From positions 370-64,369 of the forward strand of contig CALITO010000023.1 in assembly GCA_938041455.1 (NCBI GenBank): a stretch of 64,000 bases of DNA, written 5' to 3'. The DNA comes from an uncultured bacterium (GTDB taxonomy: Bacteria > Armatimonadota > JACIXR01). The position numbers were made by a program, and so were the translations under genes. Positions 5,170 through 41,770 of this stretch are shown one piece after another (position 1 is the first letter of the stretch; each line of letters starts with the position of its first letter). A model generated the notes under the pieces. The model worked only from the letters and a program-made list of their open reading frames with translations. It had not been told where the DNA came from and searched no databases.

Positions 5170-5515
5170 ATGAAAAGAGCGATTTTCTTTTCCTTGTTCC
5201 TTGTTATATTGGCTCTCCTTCCCCTTGGCTGCGGAGAGGACCACAGAAATGACCTAAGCTGGGTATTATCCCGCTATGGGAAACCTGAGGAAACGGATGT
5301 TGAATATTCGCCTGATGGCATCGCTTATATGATTCTCTGGTATTGGTCTCAGGGAAAGGGGTTCAAATTTAAGGAAGAAACCTATCTTTCTGTAAGGGGG
5401 TTGGAGTGTAAGGAAAGATATTATTGGAGACTAATAGACGAATACAATTTCCAACCTACACCTTCAAAGGAAGAGCGAGAGAAAATCAAAAGAAGATTCC
5501 TAGGGAGCGAGCAAG

Positions 5516-5526
<11 letters not shown>
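5170..5526 (+). CDS. hypothetical lipoprotein
   Basis: Signal peptide ending in lipobox LPLGC; overlaps the next gene. Confidence 0.65.
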
Positions 5527-8025
<2,499 letters not shown>

Positions 8026-8029
<4 letters not shown>

Positions 8030-9303
8030 AGCTCCTTATAAAAGGCGGAAGAGTGATAGACCCTTCTCAGAGATTGGACGAACTCGCCGATGTTCTTATA
8101 GAAGAAGGAATTATAAAAGCCATAGAAAAGGACATACAAGTAGATGCACCTATATATGAGGCCAAGGGCAAATTGGTGTTGCCTGCCTTCGTGGACCTCC
8201 ATTGCCACCTACGGGAGCCGGGGCAGGAACATAAGGAGGATTTGGCAAGCGGCTCTCTGGCTGGCGTTGCAGGAGGCTTCTGCGCCCTCTTCGCTATGCC
8301 CAATACCTCTCCCCCCCTTGATAGCAAATCACAAATAGGTTATATCCTGGCGAAAGCTGCCCACCTGCCACTCTATATCTTTCCCGTAGGGGCTTTATCA
8401 TTGGGGATGAGAGGAGAGGAACTTGCACCCATAGGAGAATTAGCAGAGGCGGGCGTGAAAGCCATCTCAGACGATGGGATGCCCGTTCAAAACAGCGGAT
8501 TATTGAGAAATGCCCTTCTCTATGCGAGGATGTTCAATCTAACAGTGATACTACATTGCGAGGACACCTCGCTCTCCCAAGGGGGTGTAGCAAACGAGGG
8601 TTTCACCGCCACCCGCCTTGGGCTCCGGGGTATCCCCACTTCAGCAGAAGAGATAGCAGTAGTGAGAGCTGTGCTCCTTGCCTTGGAAACCGGCTGTAAA
8701 GTTCACATATGCCATATATCCACGAAAAACTCATTGGAATTAGTGAGATGGGGTAAAACCAAAGGCGCACCTATAACTTGCGATGTCACTCCCCACCATC
8801 TCGTCCTCACCGAGGAAGCAATAGAGAATTATGACACAAGGGCTAAGTGTAATCCTCCCCTGCGAAGCGAGGAAGACAGAAAGGCACTTATAGAGGGACT
8901 CCTTGATGGAACGATAGATTGCATAGCAACCGACCACGCCCCCCATTCTAAGGACGAATGGGATGTGGAATTCGACCTCGCCCCATTCGGTATAGCGGGC
9001 TTAGAAACAGCCTTCCCCCTCCTTTATACCACATTGGTGGAGAATGGATTGATACCACTGGAACTGTTGGTGGAAAAGATGTCTACTACACCTGCTCAGC
9101 TTATGGATTTAGAACTGGGTAGTTTAAAAGTGGGGAGGGAGGCAAATCTCGTAGTGATTGACACCAAACCTATAAGGGTAAATGTGGAAAGTCTTTTTTC
9201 TCGGGGCAAGAATAACCCCTTCCAGGGATGGACATTAAAGGGGTTCCCTTGTTTAACAATTTGTAAAGGAGAAATAGTTTTTGAAAGGAGGGCTGAACTA
9301 TGA
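8026..9303 (+). CDS. pyrC: dihydroorotase
   Basis: DLHCHLREPG, MPNT, KCNPPLR, IATDHAPH. Confidence 0.97.
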
Positions 9304-11738
9304 AATCCTTACTTTTAGTTGTTGCCATCCTACCCCTTGCTTTGGGAGCAGAGGTTAATTCTCCCTTCGGAATGGGCATATATTTCGGCAACCGTTATAC
9401 CCCCGAGGAGATGAAAAAAGCTGCCCAGATGGCGCAGGCTATCGGTATAAAATGGTCGAGAGAAGAATTATCCTGGGGCGCCATCCAACCCGAAGAGGAT
9501 AAATGGGACTACAGCCGATATGATGTGGCGGTTGAAACAGCCTATGCGCAGGGTATATCCCTCTTCGGACTCCTTGACTACTGCGCTCCCTGGGCGAGCA
9601 CCGCTCCCGAAGGAGCGGAGAAACCCTGGTTTTGGCTACCACGCCTTGAAGCCTGGCAAAATTATGTCCGCACCACTGTGAACCGCTACAAGGACAAAAT
9701 AAAGTATTGGGAAATATGGAATGAGCCGAATATACCCACCTTCTGGCAACCCCAACCCAATCCCGATGATTACTTTTCTCTTCTCCAAACCTCCTATGTA
9801 ACTATAAAACAAGTAGACCCCTCCGCTAAAGTAATCGGTATATGTTCAGCCGGCACAGATATAGATTTTATAGAGAGAGTCCTTAACAAAGGAGGGGGTA
9901 AGTATATGGATATACTCTCCGTCCATCCTTATAGATGGCCCTCCTCCCCCGAGGAAACTGGCTTCCTTGAAGAGATGCAGAAACTTCGCTCTCTCCTCCA
10001 GCGTTACGGACTCGACATCCCCATCTGGATAACGGAGATAGGTTGGCCAACCCACGATAAAGGGGTATCCGAGCTTGACCAGGCGAAAATGTTAGTGCGA
10101 ACCTATATCATCGCCATCGGGAGCAAAGTAATAGATAAGATCTTCTGGTATGACTTCAGAGACGATGGAACAGATCCCACTGACCCCGAACAGAATTTCG
10201 GTATTATAAAGAGAGATTTCCTCCCCAAAAAAGCTTATAACGCCTACAAAGTGATGACCCAACTTCTGGAAGGGAAAACGCCCCAAGGCAGAGTAGATCT
10301 TTGGGATGACAATCTTTGGGGCTTCTCCTTTGCAAAAGGCAAGAACTTGACCCTCGTTCTCTGGTCCCATAGGGGAGAGGGGACAGTTAACCTCTTGACT
10401 AAGGTAAGGAAGGTAACTGTCCACGATATGTATGGCAAAAAGAGAGAGCTTACTCCGAGGGAGGGGAAACTTTTGCTCGATCTTTCTGAAGAACCTGTAT
10501 ATGTTGAGGGATTAGAGACAGTTGAGGTAGGTAGCCCACCAGTTCAGTTCCTCATCTCCCGCATCCGTGCCACCGGGGGCACGGAAAACGAGGTCTCGGT
10601 CCTTGTGGAAAATCTCTTTAATAAACCTGTCCAAGGGAAGGTTTACCTCCTCGCTCCAGATGGCTGGAAGGTTTCTCCCACGGAAAAAGAATACCAACTT
10701 CCTGCGGGAGATTATCAATACATAAGTTTTAAGATAACACCCCCTATAAACGCCCAAGGTGATTATCCTCTCAGAGCCCGACTTATCACAAAAGACGGCG
10801 TCCAGGCGTCCGCCTTCTCCACCGTCCAGGTTACCCAACCTATAGCGATAGCTCTTAAACCTTCCCTTTCCTCCACCCTTTCTCCCAGTTTGGATGTCAT
10901 TATTAAAAATAGAACCTCCCAAAATTTGAAGGGAACGCTCTCCATCCTATCCGAGGAGCTCCAGTTGAAAGAAGATAGAGAAATTTCCTTTTCCCCGGGC
11001 GATAATCGTCTTTCCTGGCCTATAGGGGTAAGCCTGGATTTAGATAAACCATATGAGGTAAAGGCTTCCCTCCATTTAGAGGGCATAACATCTAGCGTGG
11101 AGAGAATGGTAACCTTCTATCCGTGTATGAAAACTTCTCGTCCACCGGTCATAGATGGGGAGATTTCCCCTGAGGAATGGGCGGAGGCTGTGCCTATAAG
11201 AGTAGATAAATACGGTATCAAAGAAGGAGAGTGGAGGGGTTCTGAGGACCTATCCGCAACCGCTTATTTCCTTTGGGATGACGAGCAAGCCTACTTTGCG
11301 ATGAGGGTAGTTGATGATGTTTTCAATCAGCCATATTTAGGAGGCGATATCTGGCAAGGGGATAGTGTGCAAATAGGTTTAGCTTTCTCTCCCTTAGAGG
11401 ATGTATTGGGTGTTTACTATGCGGAAGCAGGGCTCGCCTTAACTCAGAGAGGGAAGCTCCTTTGGGTGTGGCATGCCCCGGGCATACCCTTTGTGGGAGA
11501 GTTTCAAGAGCTCAACTTTATTATAAAGCGCAAAGAGAAGGAGGTAATTTACGAAGTAGCCATTCCCTACCGCGCCTTGAACTTCGGTCTCTCCTCCGGC
11601 GCTTGGATAGGACTTGATATAATGGTGAACGATAACGACGGAAAGGGGAGAAAGGGCTGGATAGAATGGGGAAGAGGATTAAGCAGGGAGAAGAATCCCC
11701 GCCTCTTTTGGGATATGATCTTCATAGATAAAGAATAA
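9300..11738 (+). CDS. secreted clan GH-A glycoside hydrolase (GH39/GH5-like) with Ig-like and C-terminal CBM9-like domain
   Basis: Signal peptide; WEIWNEP acid/base and WITEIGW nucleophile motifs; C-terminal PPVIDG...WDD...GDSVQ...VNDNDG typical of CBM9/DOMON-like domains. Confidence 0.8.
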   Translation: MKSLLLVVAILPLALGAEVNSPFGMGIYFGNRYTPEEMKKAAQMAQAIGIKWSREELSWGAIQPEEDKWDYSRYDVAVETAYAQGISLFGLLDYCAPWASTAPEGAEKPWFWLPRLEAWQNYVRTTVNRYKDKIKYWEIWNEPNIPTFWQPQPNPDDYFSLLQTSYVTIKQVDPSAKVIGICSAGTDIDFIERVLNKGGGKYMDILSVHPYRWPSSPEETGFLEEMQKLRSLLQRYGLDIPIWITEIGWPTHDKGVSELDQAKMLVRTYIIAIGSKVIDKIFWYDFRDDGTDPTDPEQNFGIIKRDFLPKKAYNAYKVMTQLLEGKTPQGRVDLWDDNLWGFSFAKGKNLTLVLWSHRGEGTVNLLTKVRKVTVHDMYGKKRELTPREGKLLLDLSEEPVYVEGLETVEVGSPPVQFLISRIRATGGTENEVSVLVENLFNKPVQGKVYLLAPDGWKVSPTEKEYQLPAGDYQYISFKITPPINAQGDYPLRARLITKDGVQASAFSTVQVTQPIAIALKPSLSSTLSPSLDVIIKNRTSQNLKGTLSILSEELQLKEDREISFSPGDNRLSWPIGVSLDLDKPYEVKASLHLEGITSSVERMVTFYPCMKTSRPPVIDGEISPEEWAEAVPIRVDKYGIKEGEWRGSEDLSATAYFLWDDEQAYFAMRVVDDVFNQPYLGGDIWQGDSVQIGLAFSPLEDVLGVYYAEAGLALTQRGKLLWVWHAPGIPFVGEFQELNFIIKRKEKEVIYEVAIPYRALNFGLSSGAWIGLDIMVNDNDGKGRKGWIEWGRGLSREKNPRLFWDMIFIDKE

Positions 11739-11748
11739 GAAGAGGGAA

Positions 11749-12651
11749 ATGGCCCAGCTGAGAAAGCTCACTACCATCGGCTGGCGAGGTATAACGGTAG
11801 AGGTTCCCGAGGATTGGAGCGTAGCAGCAATTGGGGGCGAAGAACATCCGGAGTATATTCGCATAGACGACCCCTACGGAAACTCTTATGTGGAGATTAA
11901 GTGGTGGAGTAATCCAAGACCCACGCTAATCCTTGAGGACGCCCTTGACAACTTCCTCACCCGCATCCAGAAGGAAGCGAGGAAGAAGAAAATCCCCTTA
12001 AATCTCAAGAAAAGAAAAGCTCCCCCCTATTTAGAAAGGGGTGACAGGGAGACCTTGGTATTCTCCTGGCGGAGCGACAGGAAAGGGATAGGAAGAGTTT
12101 GGCACTGTAAAACCTGTGGGAAGATAGTGATGGCCCAGGTAGCTGGGGTGAATATCCCTCCTCTTGCCGGGCATATCCTCTCCACCATAGAGGACCATTC
12201 ATCAACAGGGAAAAATGTATGGGCACTTTTCCAATTCTATATGGAGTTGCCCGAGGATTTCAAACTTGTAGAGCAAAAACTCATGTCTGGTTTCCTCCAG
12301 TTATCCTTTAGAGGTCAGCGCAAGTTCAGGCTAAAAGTGGAAAGATATAGCATAGCGGAGAGGTTCCTCGCTGGAGGTAATTTTAAAGACTGGGCAAGGG
12401 CTGAGTTTTCCAAAAGGGCAAGGGGATTTTCCCTCTCCTTTTATGAGGAGGCATTCCGAGAGCACCCTGCGTTAGGAGCTAAGGGAAAGAGGAGAGTGGT
12501 GGGCGCGCTCCCTTTGTTAGGGGAATTCGCCCATCTCTTCGCCTGGCATTGTAGGGAAGAAGACAAAATTTTCCTCTTGGAAATGAAGGGGAAAAAAGAT
12601 ATAATTTCTATTGAAGAGGTGCGAGAGAACATCCGATGCCATTCCACCTGA
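11749..12651 (+). CDS. hypothetical protein with internal two-fold repeat and putative metal ligands
   Basis: 300 aa, overlaps the next gene; halves share VEVPEDW/MELPEDF, WHCKTC/WHCREE and IEDH/IRCH. Confidence 0.7.
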   Translation: MAQLRKLTTIGWRGITVEVPEDWSVAAIGGEEHPEYIRIDDPYGNSYVEIKWWSNPRPTLILEDALDNFLTRIQKEARKKKIPLNLKKRKAPPYLERGDRETLVFSWRSDRKGIGRVWHCKTCGKIVMAQVAGVNIPPLAGHILSTIEDHSSTGKNVWALFQFYMELPEDFKLVEQKLMSGFLQLSFRGQRKFRLKVERYSIAERFLAGGNFKDWARAEFSKRARGFSLSFYEEAFREHPALGAKGKRRVVGALPLLGEFAHLFAWHCREEDKIFLLEMKGKKDIISIEEVRENIRCHST

Positions 12652-13040
12652 AAAAGAGAACACCAACCCTTAGTAAAAAGGAGGCGCTCGATACCCTCCC
12701 CATCCGCAATCCTTATGTTGAATGGCACAAAACGGAGGAGGGGGAGGTTATCATAAAGGTGCCAAGACGCGGGGATTGGGTAGGGAAACTGCTCACCTTT
12801 ATCTTCGCACCCCCTGAGATCAGACAAGTAGCTCTTGACAAAATAGGATCTCTGGTGTGGGATTTATCTGATGGCCAGCACAGCTTTGAGGAAATCGTGC
12901 GGGTGGTGAGCAGGAATTACAAGCTGACGAGGCGGGAAGCAGAGGTGGGGGTAGCTGCTTTCCTCAGGGAATTAGGTAAGAGAAAATTGATAGTCTTAGC
13001 AGTAAGAAAGGAGGAAGGCAAGGATGAGACGAAGCAGTAA
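12636..13040 (+). CDS. stand-alone PqqD-family (RiPP recognition element) protein
   Basis: VALDKIGSLVWDLSDGQHSFEEIVRVVSRNY...VAAFLRELGKRKLI fits the PqqD/RRE pattern. Confidence 0.85.
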   Translation: MPFHLKKRTPTLSKKEALDTLPIRNPYVEWHKTEEGEVIIKVPRRGDWVGKLLTFIFAPPEIRQVALDKIGSLVWDLSDGQHSFEEIVRVVSRNYKLTRREAEVGVAAFLRELGKRKLIVLAVRKEEGKDETKQ

Positions 13041-35101: not shown

Positions 35102-35130
35102 TTGGCATGATTTGGTTGTTTTTATATAAT
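35102..35130 (+). promoter_or_regulatory. sigma70-type promoter of the pil locus
   Basis: TTGGCA-N17-TATAAT then SD AAGGAGGT. Confidence 0.6.
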
Positions 35131-35150: not shown

Positions 35151-36377
35151 ATGCCCAGAAATGGGGGCCCGGTCAGTGGTATAATGCTTGGTATTGACTT
35201 CGGCTCCAAATTTATAAAGGTAGCGGAAGTAAGCGCCAGAGGTGGAGAGTTGGAGTTACTTTCCGCGGGTATCTTACCTACACCCAGTGGCTTGTTATCA
35301 GGGGATGCCATAGTAGATCCACAAGGGGCGGCCGAGACTATCAAAACTTTACTTCAACAGGTTGGTGTCCATACTAATAAGGTTGTTATAACAGTAAAGG
35401 GGCAAACCTCCGTTGTTATAAGGATAATAGAGGTGCCAAAGATGAGGGAGGACGAGCTCGCCGATGCAATGAGATGGGAAATAGAAAGGCATGTTCCTTT
35501 TGCCAGCACGGGAGCGGTAGCGATGGACTATGCCCCACTTCAACCAATGTCTACAATCCCTGAAGAGGAGACAGGTGAAGTTCTATTAGCTGTGGCGGAG
35601 GAAGGATTGATAAAGGCGGTAGTGGATTCCTTGGAGTTAGCGGGCTTGGAAGCCGTTGTCATTGACATAGAACCCCTTGCTTTGGGACGTTGTTTTGTGG
35701 GTAAGGATCCCGAATTAAAAGGGAGAACTGTCGCTATTCTCCAAATGGGGGCAAGGTCTTCCGAGCTCACGGTAATAGGATATGATAATCCCCGTTTGAC
35801 CCGAACCCTGAATATAGGAGGTAATAACCTAACATCCGCTATCGGGAACGCTCTAAGCGTTTCAGATGAGGAGGCGGAGAAAATCAAGAAACGATATGCT
35901 GCCATACTCGTGGAAAAGCTCGGCGTTCCTACCCCCACCCTTCCCCCCGCCGAGGAAGAGGCTCCCTTCTTTCCCTTCAGCCCTACCTATGAGCTACCTC
36001 CTGAGGAAACGCCCCCTTCCAGGGTAGAAACCCCTCCGGAAAGAGAGCTTCCAGCCGATGAGAAGGAAATAAGGGAAGAAGTCTTTGAGGCTATGTTGCC
36101 GATCTTAGGAGATATAGTCAATGAACTAAGGCGTTCTTTTGAGTATGTTCGGAGCAGAGCAGAGGAGTTGCAGATAGAGAGACTTATAGTGAGTGGAGGA
36201 GGAGCCCTTATAAGGGACATAGATAAGTTCTTCTCTCGGGAGTTAGGTGTCCCCACAGAGGTGGGCGACCCCCTCAAGGGTATGAAGTTGAACCCCCGCC
36301 TTTCCCCCGCTTACTTAAGGGAGATTTCGCCCCTTCTCTCCGTCGCCATTGGCTCAGCCATTCGGGATTTTGTATAA
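35151..36377 (+). CDS. pilM: type IV pilus assembly protein PilM
   Basis: LGIDFGS..IKVAEV, WEIERHVPF, DIEPLAL, NIGG, SGGGA, LSVAIGSAIR; Pro/Glu-rich insertion. Confidence 0.92.
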   Translation: MPRNGGPVSGIMLGIDFGSKFIKVAEVSARGGELELLSAGILPTPSGLLSGDAIVDPQGAAETIKTLLQQVGVHTNKVVITVKGQTSVVIRIIEVPKMREDELADAMRWEIERHVPFASTGAVAMDYAPLQPMSTIPEEETGEVLLAVAEEGLIKAVVDSLELAGLEAVVIDIEPLALGRCFVGKDPELKGRTVAILQMGARSSELTVIGYDNPRLTRTLNIGGNNLTSAIGNALSVSDEEAEKIKKRYAAILVEKLGVPTPTLPPAEEEAPFFPFSPTYELPPEETPPSRVETPPERELPADEKEIREEVFEAMLPILGDIVNELRRSFEYVRSRAEELQIERLIVSGGGALIRDIDKFFSRELGVPTEVGDPLKGMKLNPRLSPAYLREISPLLSVAIGSAIRDFV

Positions 36378-36398
36378 TGGAGAGGAGATGATAAGAGA

Positions 36399-37400
36399 AT
36401 GATAAAAATAAATTTACTGCCGGCGTTTGTCAGGGAAAGAAAGGTTGTTAGGAAGTTATTGATGTTTATTTTGATCCTCTTGGGTTTGGAACTCTTAGGT
36501 TTTGCCTACTGGTATAACAGAGTTTCCACCCAAGGCTACGATATAGGGCAACAACTTGATGTTGCTAAAGCTCAAGCCCAGGAAGTGCAAAGGCTTCAAA
36601 GCGAGGCAGATAGCATCAGAGCAGAAATAGAGCCCATAAAGGCTAAAACGAAATTCATAGAGGATACGAAGAATTTCCCTGTTAAGCTCGCAGACCTCTT
36701 GGATTCCATCCGCCGCTATACCTACGGGAAGGTCATTTATACCTCTCTCCAGTTAGGCGGTGGTGCTGGAGGGATGATGGGACCCATGATGGGGGGGATG
36801 CCTGGACCTATGATGGGGACTGGTATGCCCGGGATGGGAGCAATGGGAGGTGGGGGAACCCAGCAAATAACTACGGTAAGCATCCAAGGGTATACCGACT
36901 CCGTGGAGAACGTCGCCCGTTACCTCCAAAATCTTCTTCGCTGTCCCCAAATAGCGGATGTGCAAATCAGCGGTATACCAGGTTATGGGACCTCCGCTGG
37001 CGCTACCCCCGGGATGGGAGGAATGCCGGGTATGATGGGTAAAGCCCCGATGATGGGAAGCGGAATGCCAGGTATGATGGGAGGAATGCCAGGAATGATG
37101 CCGGGTGCAGGAATGGGAACTACCCAAACCCCGGGACAAGTCAGTATAAGTGTGATTTGCTATTTAATGGAGCCACTTACTCCCCCCTCTCCACCCACAG
37201 CTGCTCCGCCCACAGCTGCAGGTATGCCTGGTATGGGCATGCCTGGTATGGGTATGCCTGGTATGGGCATGCCTGGAGCAGTAGGTCCCCTTCCTCAGGC
37301 TGCCGCCCCCACAACCGGAGCGCCTCCCGAAGGAAGAGGACGCTTACCAGGTCTTGAAGAGAGAAGACGAATGGAACAAGAGGTAATGGAGGGATTATGA
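36399..37400 (+). CDS. pilN: PilN-like protein with Gly/Met/Pro-rich insertions
   Basis: MIKINLLP (PilM-binding INLLP motif), TM helix, coiled coil, SIQGY..S...VARYLQNL core; follows pilM. Confidence 0.85.
   Translation: MIKINLLPAFVRERKVVRKLLMFILILLGLELLGFAYWYNRVSTQGYDIGQQLDVAKAQAQEVQRLQSEADSIRAEIEPIKAKTKFIEDTKNFPVKLADLLDSIRRYTYGKVIYTSLQLGGGAGGMMGPMMGGMPGPMMGTGMPGMGAMGGGGTQQITTVSIQGYTDSVENVARYLQNLLRCPQIADVQISGIPGYGTSAGATPGMGGMPGMMGKAPMMGSGMPGMMGGMPGMMPGAGMGTTQTPGQVSISVICYLMEPLTPPSPPTAAPPTAAGMPGMGMPGMGMPGMGMPGAVGPLPQAAAPTTGAPPEGRGRLPGLEERRRMEQEVMEGL
37221..37277 (+). repeat. 15-bp tandem repeat encoding (GMPGM) about four times
   Basis: ggtatgcctggtatg / ggcatgcctggtatg alternating. Confidence 0.9.
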
Positions 37401-38212
37401 TGATAACGAGACTGGAACGCTTAACTAAGCAACAGGCTTTATTAGTTGGTTTAGTAGCGATTATCATAATTGCGGTAGCCATGTTTTTCCTCCTTGTCCG
37501 ACCCCGGCAGAAAACCCTCTCCGCCCTCCAGAAAGAGCTACAACAGACCCAGCAAATTGTCGACCAAAGGGCACAAGCCGAAGAAAACTTAAAAAGGGCT
37601 AAGGAGGAGAAAGTCAAGGAAGAAGCAAAGCTAGCATATTACGAGAAAACCAAGATGATACCCATAGACTTAAAGGACAGAATGAAGGCTATGTTTGCCC
37701 TGTGGACCGAGCACAATAAAGTGTTGGGTAAGAAAGTAGAGGATTTCTTCAAAAATTCCGGGGTCATTTTGCTAAACCCAGTTCAAGTATCTCCTCCTCC
37801 CACTGACCCCTCCGCTATCCCCTCAGACATCTACACAATAAGCCTTGGCAATTATCAAGTAATGGCTCCTTTCCCCGCTTTGCTCGATTTCCTTAGGAAA
37901 AAGATGCCCAATTTCCCCCGTGTTGCTCTTCTACCTAGCATAAGCATAAATGGTCCTAGCCCTGTGACCGCTTCCTTTAACCTTACTCTCTACTATTTCC
38001 CAAAAGGAGGGGAAGCGGCCGCTCCCCCCGCGGGAGCACCTGCCGCAGCCGGAATGCCGGGGATGGGTGGGATGCCGGGAATGCCTATGGGAAGTATGCC
38101 CGGGATGATGAAGGGACCGATGGGTGGAGGAATGCCTATGGTAGGTAATATGCCTGCAGGAACTCCTACTCCTATGGGAGCCAATATGCCTATGGGTGGT
38201 GGGGCAAGATAA
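37397..38212 (+). CDS. PilO-like protein with Gly/Met/Pro tail
   Basis: TM helix, coiled coil, FPALLDFL...FPRV PilO/GspM-like core; follows pilN. Confidence 0.7.
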   Translation: MMITRLERLTKQQALLVGLVAIIIIAVAMFFLLVRPRQKTLSALQKELQQTQQIVDQRAQAEENLKRAKEEKVKEEAKLAYYEKTKMIPIDLKDRMKAMFALWTEHNKVLGKKVEDFFKNSGVILLNPVQVSPPPTDPSAIPSDIYTISLGNYQVMAPFPALLDFLRKKMPNFPRVALLPSISINGPSPVTASFNLTLYYFPKGGEAAAPPAGAPAAAGMPGMGGMPGMPMGSMPGMMKGPMGGGMPMVGNMPAGTPTPMGANMPMGGGAR

Positions 38213-38229
38213 AAAGGAGGTGATTTAGA

Positions 38230-39027
38230 TTGGCGATGCAAAGGTTAAGGATAGACCTAAGTGAGCGGCGAACTCAACTGGTTATTGGGGGCGCTATAGC
38301 GGTTGTAATAATAGTTATCGTCCTTTTCCTCGTTATAGGGAGAAGAGGACAACCCCCCTCCGCTCCTATGATGGGTAATATGCCAGCGGGCGCTAATATA
38401 CCAGCAGGGATGCCAGGTATGGGTATGATGGGTATGGGAATGATGGGTAATATGCCAGCGGGCGCTAATATGCCAGCAGGGATGCCAGGTATGGGTATGA
38501 TGGGTATGGGTATGATGGGTATGATGGGAGGTGCTACAGCTGGCACCCCGACTGGGGAAACGCAACCTACTATTACTCGAAAGGTCCCAGCCGGTCCCCC
38601 AAAGGAACCATCCCGGGCTGACCCCTTCCTCGTGCCCGTTCCCCAAGAGATGAGAGAAGCCCTTATGAGAGTAGACATTGTACCCCCACCTCGTATGACT
38701 CCTCTCAAAGCGCCTATGCCTACAATGGTTTATACGCAGGTGCCCTTCACAAGGGTAGCGGGAGTAGCCATATCCCGGGGAGCGTATGCTCTCTTAGAAG
38801 GAGCTAATGGTAGAACCTATATTGTGAGCCCAGGCGATGTGTTGGAAGGCTTTACCGTGGAGAGGATAGAGCCAACAGGAGTCGTTCTGAGAAGTGAGGA
38901 GGGCGAGGAGAGCACGGTGGAATTGAAAGGCGCCGAACGAGCTGGAGTGACGCCCGGGATGGGCGGTATGCCTGCACCGAGTATGCCCGGGATGGGCGGT
39001 ATGCCGGTAAGCGGAGCCCCGCGGTAG
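38230..39027 (+). CDS. PilP/GspC-like protein with Gly/Met/Pro repeats
   Basis: TM anchor; RADPF motif; YALLE...YIVSPGDVLEGFTVERIEPTGVVL beta domain typical of PilP/GspC HR. Confidence 0.7.
   Translation: MAMQRLRIDLSERRTQLVIGGAIAVVIIVIVLFLVIGRRGQPPSAPMMGNMPAGANIPAGMPGMGMMGMGMMGNMPAGANMPAGMPGMGMMGMGMMGMMGGATAGTPTGETQPTITRKVPAGPPKEPSRADPFLVPVPQEMREALMRVDIVPPPRMTPLKAPMPTMVYTQVPFTRVAGVAISRGAYALLEGANGRTYIVSPGDVLEGFTVERIEPTGVVLRSEEGEESTVELKGAERAGVTPGMGGMPAPSMPGMGGMPVSGAPR
38368..38511 (+). repeat. 72-bp tandem duplication encoding MMGNMPAGAN(I/M)PAGMPGMGMMGMG twice
   Basis: Units 38368-38439 and 38440-38511 are near-identical. Confidence 0.92.
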
Positions 39028-39072
39028 AAACAAATTCTTTGAAAAAATAGTCTAAATAAATGGAGAAATCGC

Positions 39073-39100
39073 TTGCCCCAAAAATCTAAAAATATAAAAT
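39073..39100 (+). promoter_or_regulatory. possible internal promoter for the secretin-like pair
   Basis: TTGCCC-N16-TAAAAT then SD AAGGAGGTGA. Confidence 0.45.
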
Positions 39101-39122
39101 TTAAAAGGAGGTGATATAAAAG

Positions 39123-39926
39123 ATGCGCCTTGTTAAGTTAGCGATGGTTATGGTTTTGTTCCTGTATGTTCTTCCTTACCTACTTGCTCAACAGGAAATA
39201 TCAGTAACACCGGACAATAGAGTCACTCTACAACTTAGGGATGTTCCCCGCCTTACTGCTTTGGAAACTCTTTTGAGAGCGGCAGGCAGAAACTTCACCT
39301 TTGACCCCTCAGCTCGTCGAGCTAACGACTTCGTATCCATTAGTCTCCAAAATGTAGATTTTGACCAGGCCCTCAAAGCTCTTTTAGGTGATTATCTCAC
39401 CGCGGAACCCATAGAAGGTGGCTATACGATAAAGATGCAGACCGTTACACCAGGCTTTACACAATGGGGAACCCAGCAATTTCCCTGGGGAGGCGTCCCC
39501 ACTACCCCAACAACTACTACCACCACTACCGGTCTTCCCACCAACATCATCTACGACAAAATAAACCTCCAATATGCTTCTATCTATGATATCCTTATGG
39601 TCATAGGCGGCGGCTATGGTGGCTATGGCGGATACGGCGGCTATGGTGGCTATGGCGGATACGGCGGATACGGTGGTTATGGCGGATACGGTGGCTATGG
39701 CGGTTACGGCGGATACGGTGGCTATGGCGGATACGGTGGCTATGGCGGTTACGGCGGTAGAGGCGGCGGCTACACTGGCGGTAGAGGCGGCGGCTACACT
39801 GGCGGTAGAGGCGGCGGCTACACTGGCGGTAGAGGCGGCGGCTACACCGGCGGTAGAGGCGGCGGCTACACCGGCGGTAGAGGCGGCGGCTACACCGGCG
39901 GTAGAGGCGGCTACACCGGATACTGA
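39123..39926 (+). CDS. exported secretin-N0/STN-like protein with (GGY)16-(GGRGGGYT)6 tail and no secretin barrel
   Basis: Signal peptide; VTLQLRDV...VSISLQNVDFDQALKALL (N0/STN-like); Thr-rich linker; KINLQYASIYDIL (start of an N-domain); about 105-aa G/Y/R tail. Confidence 0.8.
   Translation: MRLVKLAMVMVLFLYVLPYLLAQQEISVTPDNRVTLQLRDVPRLTALETLLRAAGRNFTFDPSARRANDFVSISLQNVDFDQALKALLGDYLTAEPIEGGYTIKMQTVTPGFTQWGTQQFPWGGVPTTPTTTTTTTGLPTNIIYDKINLQYASIYDILMVIGGGYGGYGGYGGYGGYGGYGGYGGYGGYGGYGGYGGYGGYGGYGGYGGYGGRGGGYTGGRGGGYTGGRGGGYTGGRGGGYTGGRGGGYTGGRGGGYTGGRGGYTGY
39609..39752 (+). repeat. 16 x GGY coding repeat (9-bp unit, synonymous variation)
   Basis: Counted by codon; Gly codons ggc/ggt/gga and Tyr codons tat/tac are mixed. 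Confidence 0.95.
39753..39923 (+). repeat. 6 x 24-bp repeat encoding GGRGGGYT plus a partial seventh copy
   Basis: ggcggtagaggcggcggctacac(t/c): three act copies then three acc copies. Confidence 0.95.
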
Positions 39927-40012
39927 TTTTTCTCCTTGTCTAAATTTTGAGATACGGTATCATCAAAAAGAGAGCGGTAATTCCTCTTAAGTTGAAGGGA
40001 GGTTGGTTTATT

Positions 40013-41770
40013 ATGTATTCCCTTATGAAGAGGGGCGTCTTTGCAGTAGTTGTAGCGCTCCCGTTGTTTGTTTTTTGGGCATCGGGGTCGTGGGTGAAAG
40101 CAGAGGCAGCATCAGACGATGTAGAACAGAATCTGGTAACCTTGCAGGTGCAGGATGCTGACCTATGCGAGGTAGTTAGCATGCTGATGAAGGAGAGCAG
40201 AGCGAACATCATCATCGCCGATAGAGACAAGATAAAAAAGACCATCACCGCTAATCTCTACGATGTCCCTTTGGAAGAAGCGCTGGAGAAAATCGTGAAA
40301 GCAAATGGGCTCTATTGGTATAAAGAGGGCGATGTCTATGTAATAAGCGCCGAGCCACGAGCAGAGCCAACGGAAAAATTATCCTCTCCCCCTCTTGAGA
40401 AGACTACCCCTACAACTGAGGGTGTTTCTTCCACCTCCTCTGAAACTCTAATCGCATCTCCTCAACCCACCCGCTTAGAGACAGAGAAATTTGTCCTGAA
40501 GTATGCTCATCCTCGAGATATTGCAGCTTTGTTTGGAGCTTCTATCCCCCGCCGCCCCTTCTCCTATTACCAAGGAGCGGAAAGACAAGGTAGGGGACCT
40601 TTAGCACCTTCTTTCGGACGCTCCAGGGAAGAAAGTGCTAATTCCCCCATTCAGGGAGGATTTGGTCAGTTCAGGGGAGGTGTGGGTGGCTTCAGAGGGG
40701 GTGTTGGTGGGATGGGCTTCCCCGGAGGTGTAGGTGGCTTTGCCGGGGGCATGGGTGGTTTTCCTGGAGGTGTGGGTGGCTTTCCCGGAGGGATGGGAGC
40801 GTATCCCGGCGGGGTAGGGGCCTTCCCGGGCGGAGTTACTGGCTATGCGGGGGTGGGAGGTGTTGGAGCAGGTTACTATGGCTATGGCCTAATGGCGTTT
40901 GTTCCCGGCGTCTACAACATAATCCCTTATGAGCCTGATAACGCCCTCATAGTTATAGGAACTCAGGAGGGGATAGAACAGTTTAGAAAACTTCTCCAAC
41001 TGTTGGATGTCCCTGTTCGCCAGGTGGAGATATCCGCGGAGTTCGTGGAGATAAGCACGGATGTAACGAAGAGCTTGGGAATAGATTGGATGCTGACTAA
41101 TAACGAGACTACGATAGTGGGACAAGGGATGTCCCCGGGAACTGGTGCTACTTTAGTTATAGGTTATACCACGCCCCGGATAAGGGTTCAACTGGGCGCT
41201 CTAATGAGAGAGGGTAAAGCGAGATTGGTTAACGCCCCTCGGGTGAGTACCTATAACAATTATCCAGCTTATATCTCCGTCACGCAGGACATCCCCTACT
41301 GGTATCCAGAGACAACCCTCACACAATTTGGGGGAACCCAGACTACCTGGGTGCCTGATATGATAAGTGTTGGAACATATCTCACAGTTACTCCCACAAT
41401 AAACGGGGATGGTTCCATTACCTGTTATATCACCCCCAGTGTATCAGAAGTTGTTGGTTTTGTGACTGGTCCTACCGGGTCGCTGCCCCAGACGAGCACG
41501 AGGGATATGGACACAATAGCGAGGGTTATGAACGGAGAGACACTGGTGATAGGCGGTTTGATACGCAAAAACATCAGCACCCAGAAGGTCAAAGTCCCCT
41601 TCCTCTCCGAATTACCGATCATTGGGGGACTCTTCAAAGGAACAACTCAAACGACTACGGAGAGCGAACTGCTGATATTTCTTACCCCCCGTATAATAGA
41701 GGAGCCCGGTAGGGTCACGGGAACGGTTGTTGTGCCCCCTACAACTGGAGGGGGAACTGGGGGTCCATAA
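40013..41770 (+). CDS. outer-membrane secretin (PilQ/GspD family) with Gly-rich insertion
   Basis: Signal peptide, N0 domain, LDVPVRQVEISAEFVE, LGIDW, PRVSTYNN, GETLVIGGL, KVPFLSELPIIGGLFK, ELLIFLTPRII. Confidence 0.93.
   Translation: MYSLMKRGVFAVVVALPLFVFWASGSWVKAEAASDDVEQNLVTLQVQDADLCEVVSMLMKESRANIIIADRDKIKKTITANLYDVPLEEALEKIVKANGLYWYKEGDVYVISAEPRAEPTEKLSSPPLEKTTPTTEGVSSTSSETLIASPQPTRLETEKFVLKYAHPRDIAALFGASIPRRPFSYYQGAERQGRGPLAPSFGRSREESANSPIQGGFGQFRGGVGGFRGGVGGMGFPGGVGGFAGGMGGFPGGVGGFPGGMGAYPGGVGAFPGGVTGYAGVGGVGAGYYGYGLMAFVPGVYNIIPYEPDNALIVIGTQEGIEQFRKLLQLLDVPVRQVEISAEFVEISTDVTKSLGIDWMLTNNETTIVGQGMSPGTGATLVIGYTTPRIRVQLGALMREGKARLVNAPRVSTYNNYPAYISVTQDIPYWYPETTLTQFGGTQTTWVPDMISVGTYLTVTPTINGDGSITCYITPSVSEVVGFVTGPTGSLPQTSTRDMDTIARVMNGETLVIGGLIRKNISTQKVKVPFLSELPIIGGLFKGTTQTTTESELLIFLTPRIIEEPGRVTGTVVVPPTTGGGTGGP

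Follow-up and report, generated by a model that had tools for sequence, protein, structure and literature searches.

The DNA analysed here (the window) comprises 64,000 nucleotides of contig CALITO010000023.1 (positions 370 to 64,369, assembly GCA_938041455.1) from an uncultured bacterium of the phylum Armatimonadota. Positions 35151-41770 hold a single operon of six co-directional, closely spaced open reading frames (ORFs) on the forward (+) strand, encoding PilM, PilN-like, PilO-like and PilP-like proteins, an extra N0/STN protein and a secretin; no pilin or ATPase genes were found within these six. An earlier reading of the letters without database searches (hereafter the sequence-only reading) had described low-complexity segments in every listed subunit. 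We found all of these blocks, that of PilM being rich in Pro and Glu and the others in Gly. The best explanation of the machine is that it is the scaffold spanning the envelope in a second type IVa pilus-like system, widespread in Armatimonadota. The position of the Gly-rich segments at fixed sites suggests that they are not repeats arisen by chance but a polymer brush or seal built into the machine around its channel.

The first ORF (35151..36377; 408 amino acids, aa) encodes PilM, a cytoplasmic protein with an actin-like ATPase fold. It scored 218.1 bits against TIGR01175 (cut-off 133) and 164 bits against PF11104 (cut-off 27; 4.9e-48) and thereby qualifies as a type IVa pilus PilM. The N, O and P proteins fell below the curated family cut-offs and were identified by profile methods instead. 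The PilN-like protein (36399..37400; 333 aa) reached 21.6 bits with PF05137, slightly below the cut-off of 22.8. A profile of 61 PilN-like sequences matched Myxococcus xanthus PilN (3jc8) at 1.6e-16, and comparison with the canonical PilN of the same phylum gave an hhalign value of 99.1%. The N-terminal INLLP motif of PilN binds PilM; here its residues N5, L6, L7 and P8 are at least 90% conserved among the 61 sequences. In the AlphaFold2 model a long helix (9-106) is followed by a ferredoxin-like beta-beta-alpha-beta-beta core, and all the features expected of a type IVa pilus PilN (INLLP motif, membrane helix, coiled coil and ferredoxin-like core) are present.

The PilO/GspM-like protein (37397..38212; 271 aa) had no Pfam match above cut-off and matched the GspM NCBIfam model at 3e-4, below its cut-off; with the canonical PilO of the phylum hhalign gave 98.4%, in an alignment limited to 52 columns. 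The PilP/GspC-like protein (38230..39027; 265 aa) matched TIGR03021 at 2.4e-4, again below cut-off. Its HR domain aligned with the canonical PilP of the phylum at 98.5% (hhalign, 66 columns), and its profile matched Neisseria meningitidis PilP (4av2_M in the PDB) at 3.5e-4. The HR beta-domain of a type IVa PilP is present, whereas the lipid anchor is absent: the protein is not a lipoprotein, because it starts with a membrane helix and has no Cys.

The extra N0/STN protein (39123..39926; 267 aa) matched PF07660 at 7e-4, below cut-off. Its N0 domain (aa 25-105) was predicted by AlphaFold2 with a per-residue confidence score (pLDDT) above 90, and its top fold match was the N0 domain of N. meningitidis PilQ (4ar0; root mean square deviation 1.8 Å over 73 columns). 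The protein is paralogous to the secretin's N-terminal half, with which it aligns collinearly (BLASTP against secretin aa 1-338, E 3e-4) and shares the order of signal sequence, N0 domain, Thr-rich linker, strand-helix element and Gly-rich stretch. An ESM Atlas search with it placed an Armatimonadota STN cluster at rank 4 (score 0.90), behind three viral hypothetical clusters that were probably matched on Gly-rich composition; all of these are leads only. A predicted complex of the N0 protein with the PilP HR region scored 0.19 against a mark of 0.32, which is evidence neither way.

The secretin (39947..41770; 607 aa counted from the first TTG) consists of an N0 domain, a split last N domain and the secretin domain. 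Judging by the start positions of orthologues, its true start is probably an ATG about 22 codons 3' of the TTG at 39947, near 40013. It matched PF00263 with 148 bits (2.5e-43) and STN with 31.6 bits, and Secretin_N at profile positions 32-69 only. Its top PDB match was N. meningitidis PilQ (7e-34); its score against the PilQ model TIGR02515 (201.6 bits) lies below the cut-off of 284.35, which leaves it outside that subfamily as modelled, and Pfam gave no match to an AMIN domain. The secretin domain proper, i.e. outer-membrane barrel and gate (aa 418-585; 41198..41701; PF00263), is one of two such domains in the genome. A six-gene operon with a free N0 protein is a type mostly missed by current family models.

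Eight Gly-rich blocks contribute about 509 residues per protomer set, of which just 4 are Asp/Glu and 14 are Lys/Arg, and none is His or Cys. Three Gly/Met/Pro-rich (G/M/P) blocks lie in the PilN-like protein, all with pLDDT below 50 (AlphaFold2). Blocks 1 (aa 117-156; 36747..36866) and 2 (aa 193-247; 36975..37139) occupy the beta1-beta2 and beta3-beta4 loops of the folded core, and block 3 is a P/G/A/M tail (aa 262-312; 37182..37334). In the Armatimonadota survey described below, the site of block 1 was occupied in just 8% of orthologues, all from the window's own family, that of block 2 carried Gly-rich low complexity in 35-56% of 72 orthologues, and that of block 3 was occupied in 75-86% of the same 72. 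Beyond the disordered tail the protein ends in a helix (aa 319-332; 37353..37394; pLDDT ~90). A similar sequence is found in the family's four other genomes and not in G031/G018, and this predicted amphipathic helix could be a docking element.

The PilO-like protein ends in a free G/M/P/A tail (aa 200-271; 37994..38209), in which 20 Gly, 15 Met and 14 Pro occur among 72 residues; its site was occupied in 81-90% of 67 orthologues. The PilP-like protein has an M/G-rich block following the membrane helix (aa 44-111; 38359..38562; 21 Met and 19 Gly among 68 residues) and a free C-terminal G/M/P tail (aa 238-265; 38941..39024), with the two sites occupied in 41-49% of 63 orthologues and in 54-71% of orthologues, respectively. 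The tail of the N0 protein, built from GGY and RGGGYTG motifs (aa 154-267; 39582..39923), is 114 residues long with pLDDT below 50 and contains 60% Gly, 22% Tyr, 6% Arg and 6% Thr (site occupied in 76-93% of 45 orthologues). The last block, a Gly/Phe/Val-rich loop in the secretin (aa 235-315; 40649..40891), has 49% Gly, 10% Phe and 10% Val among 81 residues (site occupied in 73-86% of 44 orthologues). Within the last N domain this loop appears to connect helix 1 to strand 2, as the domain's "variable loop". We place it inside that domain because the Pfam match to Secretin_N is confined to the second half of the profile and lies immediately behind the loop, and because the N0 protein and the genome's second secretin repeat the order of a strand-helix element followed by a Gly-rich stretch.

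The PilM insert (aa 256-303; 35916..36059) is cytoplasmic and, with 14 Pro and 9 Glu in 48 residues, not Gly-rich; Gly-rich low complexity was found in PilM at 3 of the 80 surveyed loci. The site of this insert is expanded across the phylum, with ORFs of up to 829 aa and matches that split at about aa 255, and residues F276, Y280, P283, E285, E286 and P289 of its motif are invariant in five sequences from two families.

To obtain relatives of the operon, contigs were scanned with a PilM alignment, and the best 80 of 160 confirmed PilM relatives, all from Armatimonadota, were surveyed as loci. A contig scan with the N0 protein gave 600 pattern matches, none of which was confirmed as a relative. 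Gene classes were assigned by iterated hidden Markov model searches, and ORFs cut by a locus end or containing X were left out of the counts. Segments were counted as Gly-rich if they had an entropy of at most 2.3 bits in 20 aa, a length of at least 15 aa and at least 28% Gly. The gene order of the window (MNOPSQ, with S for the N0 protein and Q for the secretin) was present at 35/80 loci and a prefix of it at another 33 (MNOPS 16, MNO 5, MN 5, MNOP 4, M 3); the other orders, at 12 loci (MNOPQ 5 and seven single variants), were mostly contig-end truncations or ORF-calling variants.

Gly-rich low complexity was found in 69/72 PilN, 61/67 PilO, 54/63 PilP, 43/45 N0 proteins and 40/44 secretins, at topological sites matching those of the window proteins, compared with 32/473 flanking ORFs of the same loci. 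This PilM type was present in 41/41 related genomes (22 families), and the operon with all blocks is shared by the genus, by the family and by a further family with ~40% PilM identity. The sequence-only reading had proposed to check whether position and composition of the inserts are conserved while their sequence diverges. This check came out in its favour: position and Gly-richness are kept across the phylum as the sequence diverges. In the literature searched, mostly at abstract level, we found no description of Gly-rich inserts in pilus or secretin proteins of Armatimonadota; Armatimonadetes were mentioned only as a taxon with reassigned systems resembling type II secretion (PMC6668835, accessible text).

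The genome contains exactly two secretins, one in the operon and one in a canonical type IVa pilus cluster on contig C17 (L132), positions 5368-12903 of the (-) strand, together with three pilin-like genes, a gene for a 480-aa DUF7305 protein and PilM/N/O/P. The PilM, N, O, P and Q proteins of the two loci are homologous (hhalign 98-99%). However, PilM, N, O and P of the canonical cluster are compact (318/194/219/180 aa) and without any Gly-rich block, and all of its parts score above the Pfam cut-offs. Unlike the operon, this cluster has adjacent pilins and a secretin with an AMIN domain (PF11741, 27.8 bits). Its secretin resembles that of the operon in having a Gly-rich loop at the matching topological place in the last N domain, here with a GMGMGMGMGMG run. 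In the paralogous canonical clusters of 20 genomes of the phylum, with genes assigned by gene order, Gly-rich segments occurred in 0/20 PilN, 0/20 PilO and 1/20 PilP (borderline), and in 9 of the 19 complete secretins. Elsewhere in the window's genome there are two PilB-PilT-PilC modules, on contigs C35 (L153) and C8 (L154). Neither adjoins the operon; the C35 module is adjoined by a prepilin peptidase gene and a gene for a 242-aa pilin-like protein.

The DNA encoding the blocks consists of near-identical tandem repeats: 72 bp x2.1 with 97% identity for the PilP linker, 24 bp x6.7 with 98% identity for the N0 tail, 21-bp repeats for the secretin loop, and 15-bp units with 94-100% identity. In the whole genome, 17 of 1794 pseudo-genes have a Gly-rich low-complexity segment of at least 20 aa, and five of these lie in the operon. 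The blocks exceed chance, and the operon is strongly enriched in them. Nearly all other Gly-rich carriers of the genome, among which is its second secretin, have a hydrophobic N-terminus, and G/M/P is a dialect that this genome uses for linkers in extracytoplasmic proteins. A wide occurrence of such G/M tails, on many unrelated proteins, had been named as a finding that would count against a specific role of the inserts. This applies weakly, in that G/M/P blocks are present in about six other secreted proteins, while the paralogous PilM/N/O/P have none.

Other proteins (L125, L126, L128, L130 and L131 on contigs C3, C4, C8, C32 and C44) combine G/M/P or G/P/A blocks with hydrophobic N-termini. 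These are 539-aa and 328-aa proteins without a Pfam family, a PKD-domain protein, a protein of 280 aa that has a G/M tail, and a 126-aa membrane protein built almost entirely of such repeats. An M48-family peptidase on contig C14 (L129; 18804-19748) has a short Gly/Arg/Tyr low-complexity segment at aa 187-207. In Capsulimonadaceae-like loci, genes directly 5' of pilM encode DUF5666 proteins, every one of which has three Gly-rich blocks, and a TolC-like outer-membrane efflux protein containing a Gly-rich insert (L092, 6392-7279 and 9002-9838; L087, 3926-5485; L099, 5895-6866); these may be further operon members there or reflect a wider habit of the phylum. In the window itself, long ORFs in alternative frames run over the repeat-coding stretches at 36753-37139 (-), 38257-38708 (-) and 39616-39990 (+). 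Their products would be rich in His/Ser, Ile/Pro or Ala/Val/Thr, and they look like shadows of the repeats rather than genes. Just 5' of pilM lies a promoter-like site (TTGGCA-17-TATAAT; 35102..35130, +), which is a consensus match only; such sites were as numerous in the region as expected from shuffles. A look-up of sequencing runs listed one DNA data set, which may stem from the source sample, and no RNA data set.

The blocks of the surveyed loci fall into two compositions. In the inner-membrane proteins (N/O/P) the medians were 39-42% Gly, 14-16% Pro, 10-13% Ala, 7-10% Met and 2-3% aromatic residues, and in the outer blocks, i.e. N0 tails and secretin loops, they were 53-59% Gly, 0-4% Pro and 7-10% aromatic residues, plus Leu/Ile/Val and Gln/Asn. 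The median of Asp/Glu was 0-1% in all blocks. Compared within loci, the inner blocks were richer than the outer ones in Pro at 56/56 loci, in Ala at 53/56 and in Met at just 34/56, and the outer blocks were richer in Gly at 52/56 and in aromatic residues at 48/56. The sequence-only reading had proposed that the non-Gly residue shifts along the envelope, starting from Met at the inner membrane. The shift itself can be generalized, with Pro marking the inner and aromatic residues the outer blocks, but Met does not follow it consistently.

Met content of the inner blocks ranged from 0 to 26% between clades: it was 26% in the window's genus and 0-2% in several clades, and Met was replaced by Ala, Pro or Ser in the inner blocks of other clades. 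The outer blocks had a median of 0% Met. The GC content was considered as the main driver of the choice between Met and Ala and rejected, the correlations being weak (rho -0.25 for Met, p 0.03, phylogeny-uncorrected; rho 0.13 for Ala). We conclude that methionine is not the conserved property. What is conserved is Gly-rich disorder without charge, with an inner grammar that includes Pro and an outer one that is aromatic and free of Pro.

Tentatively, and with somewhat less than even confidence, we favour the view that the blocks are selected, system-specific disordered chains, which act as bristles, spacers or tethers on N, O and P and as a cohesive outer constriction on the N0 protein and the secretin. 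Selection would maintain uncharged Gly-rich disordered chains at fixed periplasmic sites. In the inner zone (PilN loops and tail, PilO tail, PilP linker and tail) the chains, with ~40% Gly and ~15% Pro plus Ala or Met, would be non-sticky entropic bristles, spacers or tethers that fill and cushion the periplasmic cage, and in the window's family the chain of the PilN tail would tether the conserved C-terminal helix. The chains of the outer zone, which are the N0 tail and the loop of the secretin, have 53-59% Gly and hardly any Pro, with Phe, Tyr, Trp, Leu, Gln or Met interspersed. At the expected 12-15 copies per ring, they may pack into a dense and deformable constriction, probably cohering with one another, inside the vestibule of the secretin or below it. 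Such a constriction would seal the empty wide channel and yield as the fibre passes. Solved secretins have 12-15 chains per ring; by our estimate, 14 loops of 81 aa in a lumen of ~7.5 nm over 10 nm would reach ~300 mg/ml and, if they face inwards, would fill it. The gel, sleeve or condensate behaviour that had been suggested for the inserts is physically plausible. A stronger version, in which N0 tail and secretin loop form a self-healing gel plug in the outer-membrane channel, akin to that of FG-nucleoporins, with N/O/P as the surrounding non-cohesive brush, seems to us unlikely. If true, cohesive disordered chains would themselves make up the permeability barrier, in place of a folded gate or a plug protein.

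The blocks could instead be purely mechanical spacers and tethers, with which the inner-membrane complex would bridge a wide or variable periplasm and pass the peptidoglycan to reach the secretin, with no cohesion or sealing. The PilN tail does end in a confidently predicted, family-conserved helix, the PilP block does sit between membrane helix and HR domain, the blocks are nearly uncharged and predicted to be disordered, and the same G/M/P composition joins folded domains in unrelated secreted proteins. However, the tails of PilO, PilP and the N0 protein are free ends and two of the PilN blocks are beta-hairpin loops, so nothing is tethered there; the Pro-free, aromatic-richer outer chains are left unexplained, and the paralogous machine works in the same envelope without blocks. 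We consider this explanation rather unlikely, though the most serious of the alternatives. That slippage-prone repeats are neutral by-products, tolerated in permissive loops and tails and with a composition that is a lineage dialect, would fit the near-identical DNA repeat units, the widely varying block lengths, the confinement of PilN block 1 to one family, the same dialect elsewhere in the genome and the weak tracking of GC by Met content. Yet ~92% of the N/O/P/S/Q orthologues have blocks, against ~7% of the flanking ORFs, and blocks are absent from the equivalent loops and tails of the paralogous PilN/O/P encoded by these genomes. Drift should also not maintain the inner/outer rule, seen in 56/56 loci from many families, across the phylum. 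Neutrality is improbable in the light of these findings.

The lack of an AMIN domain in the operon's secretin, where the paralogous secretin has one, raises the idea that the chains substitute for it by anchoring to or clearing peptidoglycan, either entangling the sacculus or holding it open. The blocks have no known peptidoglycan-binding motif, though, and AMIN-bearing paralogous secretins (that of this genome included) often have a Gly-rich loop too; the loop is therefore no simple AMIN substitute, and we regard such a role as quite improbable. Chemistry specific to Met, i.e. Cu(I) binding or a sacrificial oxidant sink in the envelope, had been offered by the sequence-only reading as an alternative for the Met blocks. 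In this genus Met makes up 71/314 residues of the N/O/P blocks, compared with 2.1% of the proteome, with many MxM and MxxM spacings, and Met-rich periplasmic proteins and MsrP-based repair are known from the accessible literature. But the many clades with 0-2% Met in their inner blocks contradict this chemistry as a general function, as does the Met-poor composition of the outer blocks; the blocks are without His or Cys, and no PF00174 (MsrP-type molybdoenzyme) domain was found in the genome, which is 97% complete. Because Met spans 0-26% between clades, a copper or oxidant role is not the conserved function, and we think it very improbable as an explanation of the blocks.

Several points weigh against the selected brush and constriction that we favour. 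Because the 80 loci are related to one another, the counts exaggerate how many independent observations there are, although the loci still span many families. Block lengths differ widely even within the genus (PilN 0-218 residues); together with the near-identical DNA repeats, this is also compatible with tolerated slippage. Several unrelated secreted proteins of the genome use G/M/P blocks simply to link domains, and other Armatimonadota have Gly-rich blocks in DUF5666 and TolC-like proteins as well; the pattern is therefore partly a habit of the phylum for extracytoplasmic proteins. The putative placement and orientation of the secretin loop follow from a partial Pfam match and from analogy with the type III secretin InvG. 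The variable-loop insertion in the N3 domain of InvG is disordered in most structures and has been proposed to form a periplasmic constriction; in needle-bound InvG, however, the loop threads outward between N3 and N1 (PMC6155069, accessible text). The insertion here would lie at the matching place of the N domain. It also differs from that of InvG, which in the accessible text has ~50 residues and is not Gly-rich, in having ~115 residues, 81 of which are 49% Gly with Phe, Val and Tyr.

Compared with the canonical PilMNOPQ of M. xanthus (3jc8) and N. meningitidis (4av2), the operon has the same gene order M-N-O-P-Q, a PilM above cut-off and the INLLP motif in PilN. In contrast to these systems, each periplasmic subunit has 50-150 residues of Gly-rich disorder, a free N0 protein is added, PilM contains a cytoplasmic Pro/Glu insert, PilP has a membrane helix, as in GspC, in place of the lipid anchor, the secretin is without AMIN and the operon is without pilin and ATPase genes.

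The FG-repeat domains of the nuclear pore are disordered, uncharged and only sparsely aromatic; many copies of them are grafted around the wide channel, and their cohesion and selectivity have been demonstrated. Nuclear pore proteins are eukaryotic and have another spacer composition, and the likeness of the present chains to them is one of composition and predicted disorder. The G/M region of Sis1 has a Gly/Met composition comparable to that of the N/O/P blocks of this genus. The GGMP repeats of cytosolic Hsp70 also resemble these blocks in composition, but they are short, lie between lid and EEVD motif, are tied to co-chaperone binding and belong to a cytosolic protein rather than an envelope machine (PMC7926355, accessible text). 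The composition of the GGY/RGGGYTG tail of the N0 protein resembles that of the phase-separating tick cement GRP, of Gly/Tyr/Arg type, which is a secreted animal adhesive (PMC11794139, accessible text). In P. aeruginosa, plug proteins that interact with the type IV pilus secretin keep the wide secretin channel from leaking (PMC13392014, accessible text). Those are separate folded proteins, whereas the candidate seal here would be made of built-in disordered loops, and the two may be linked by the problem they address.

Secretins are among the widest pores of the outer membrane, and how they stay tight is an open question. The phylum Armatimonadota appears to build ~500 uncharged disordered residues per protomer set into one pilus-like machine and to keep a compact paralogue alongside. 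This provides a natural, internally controlled system, together with simple peptides, for asking whether bacteria use the physics of polymer brushes or gels in the periplasm.

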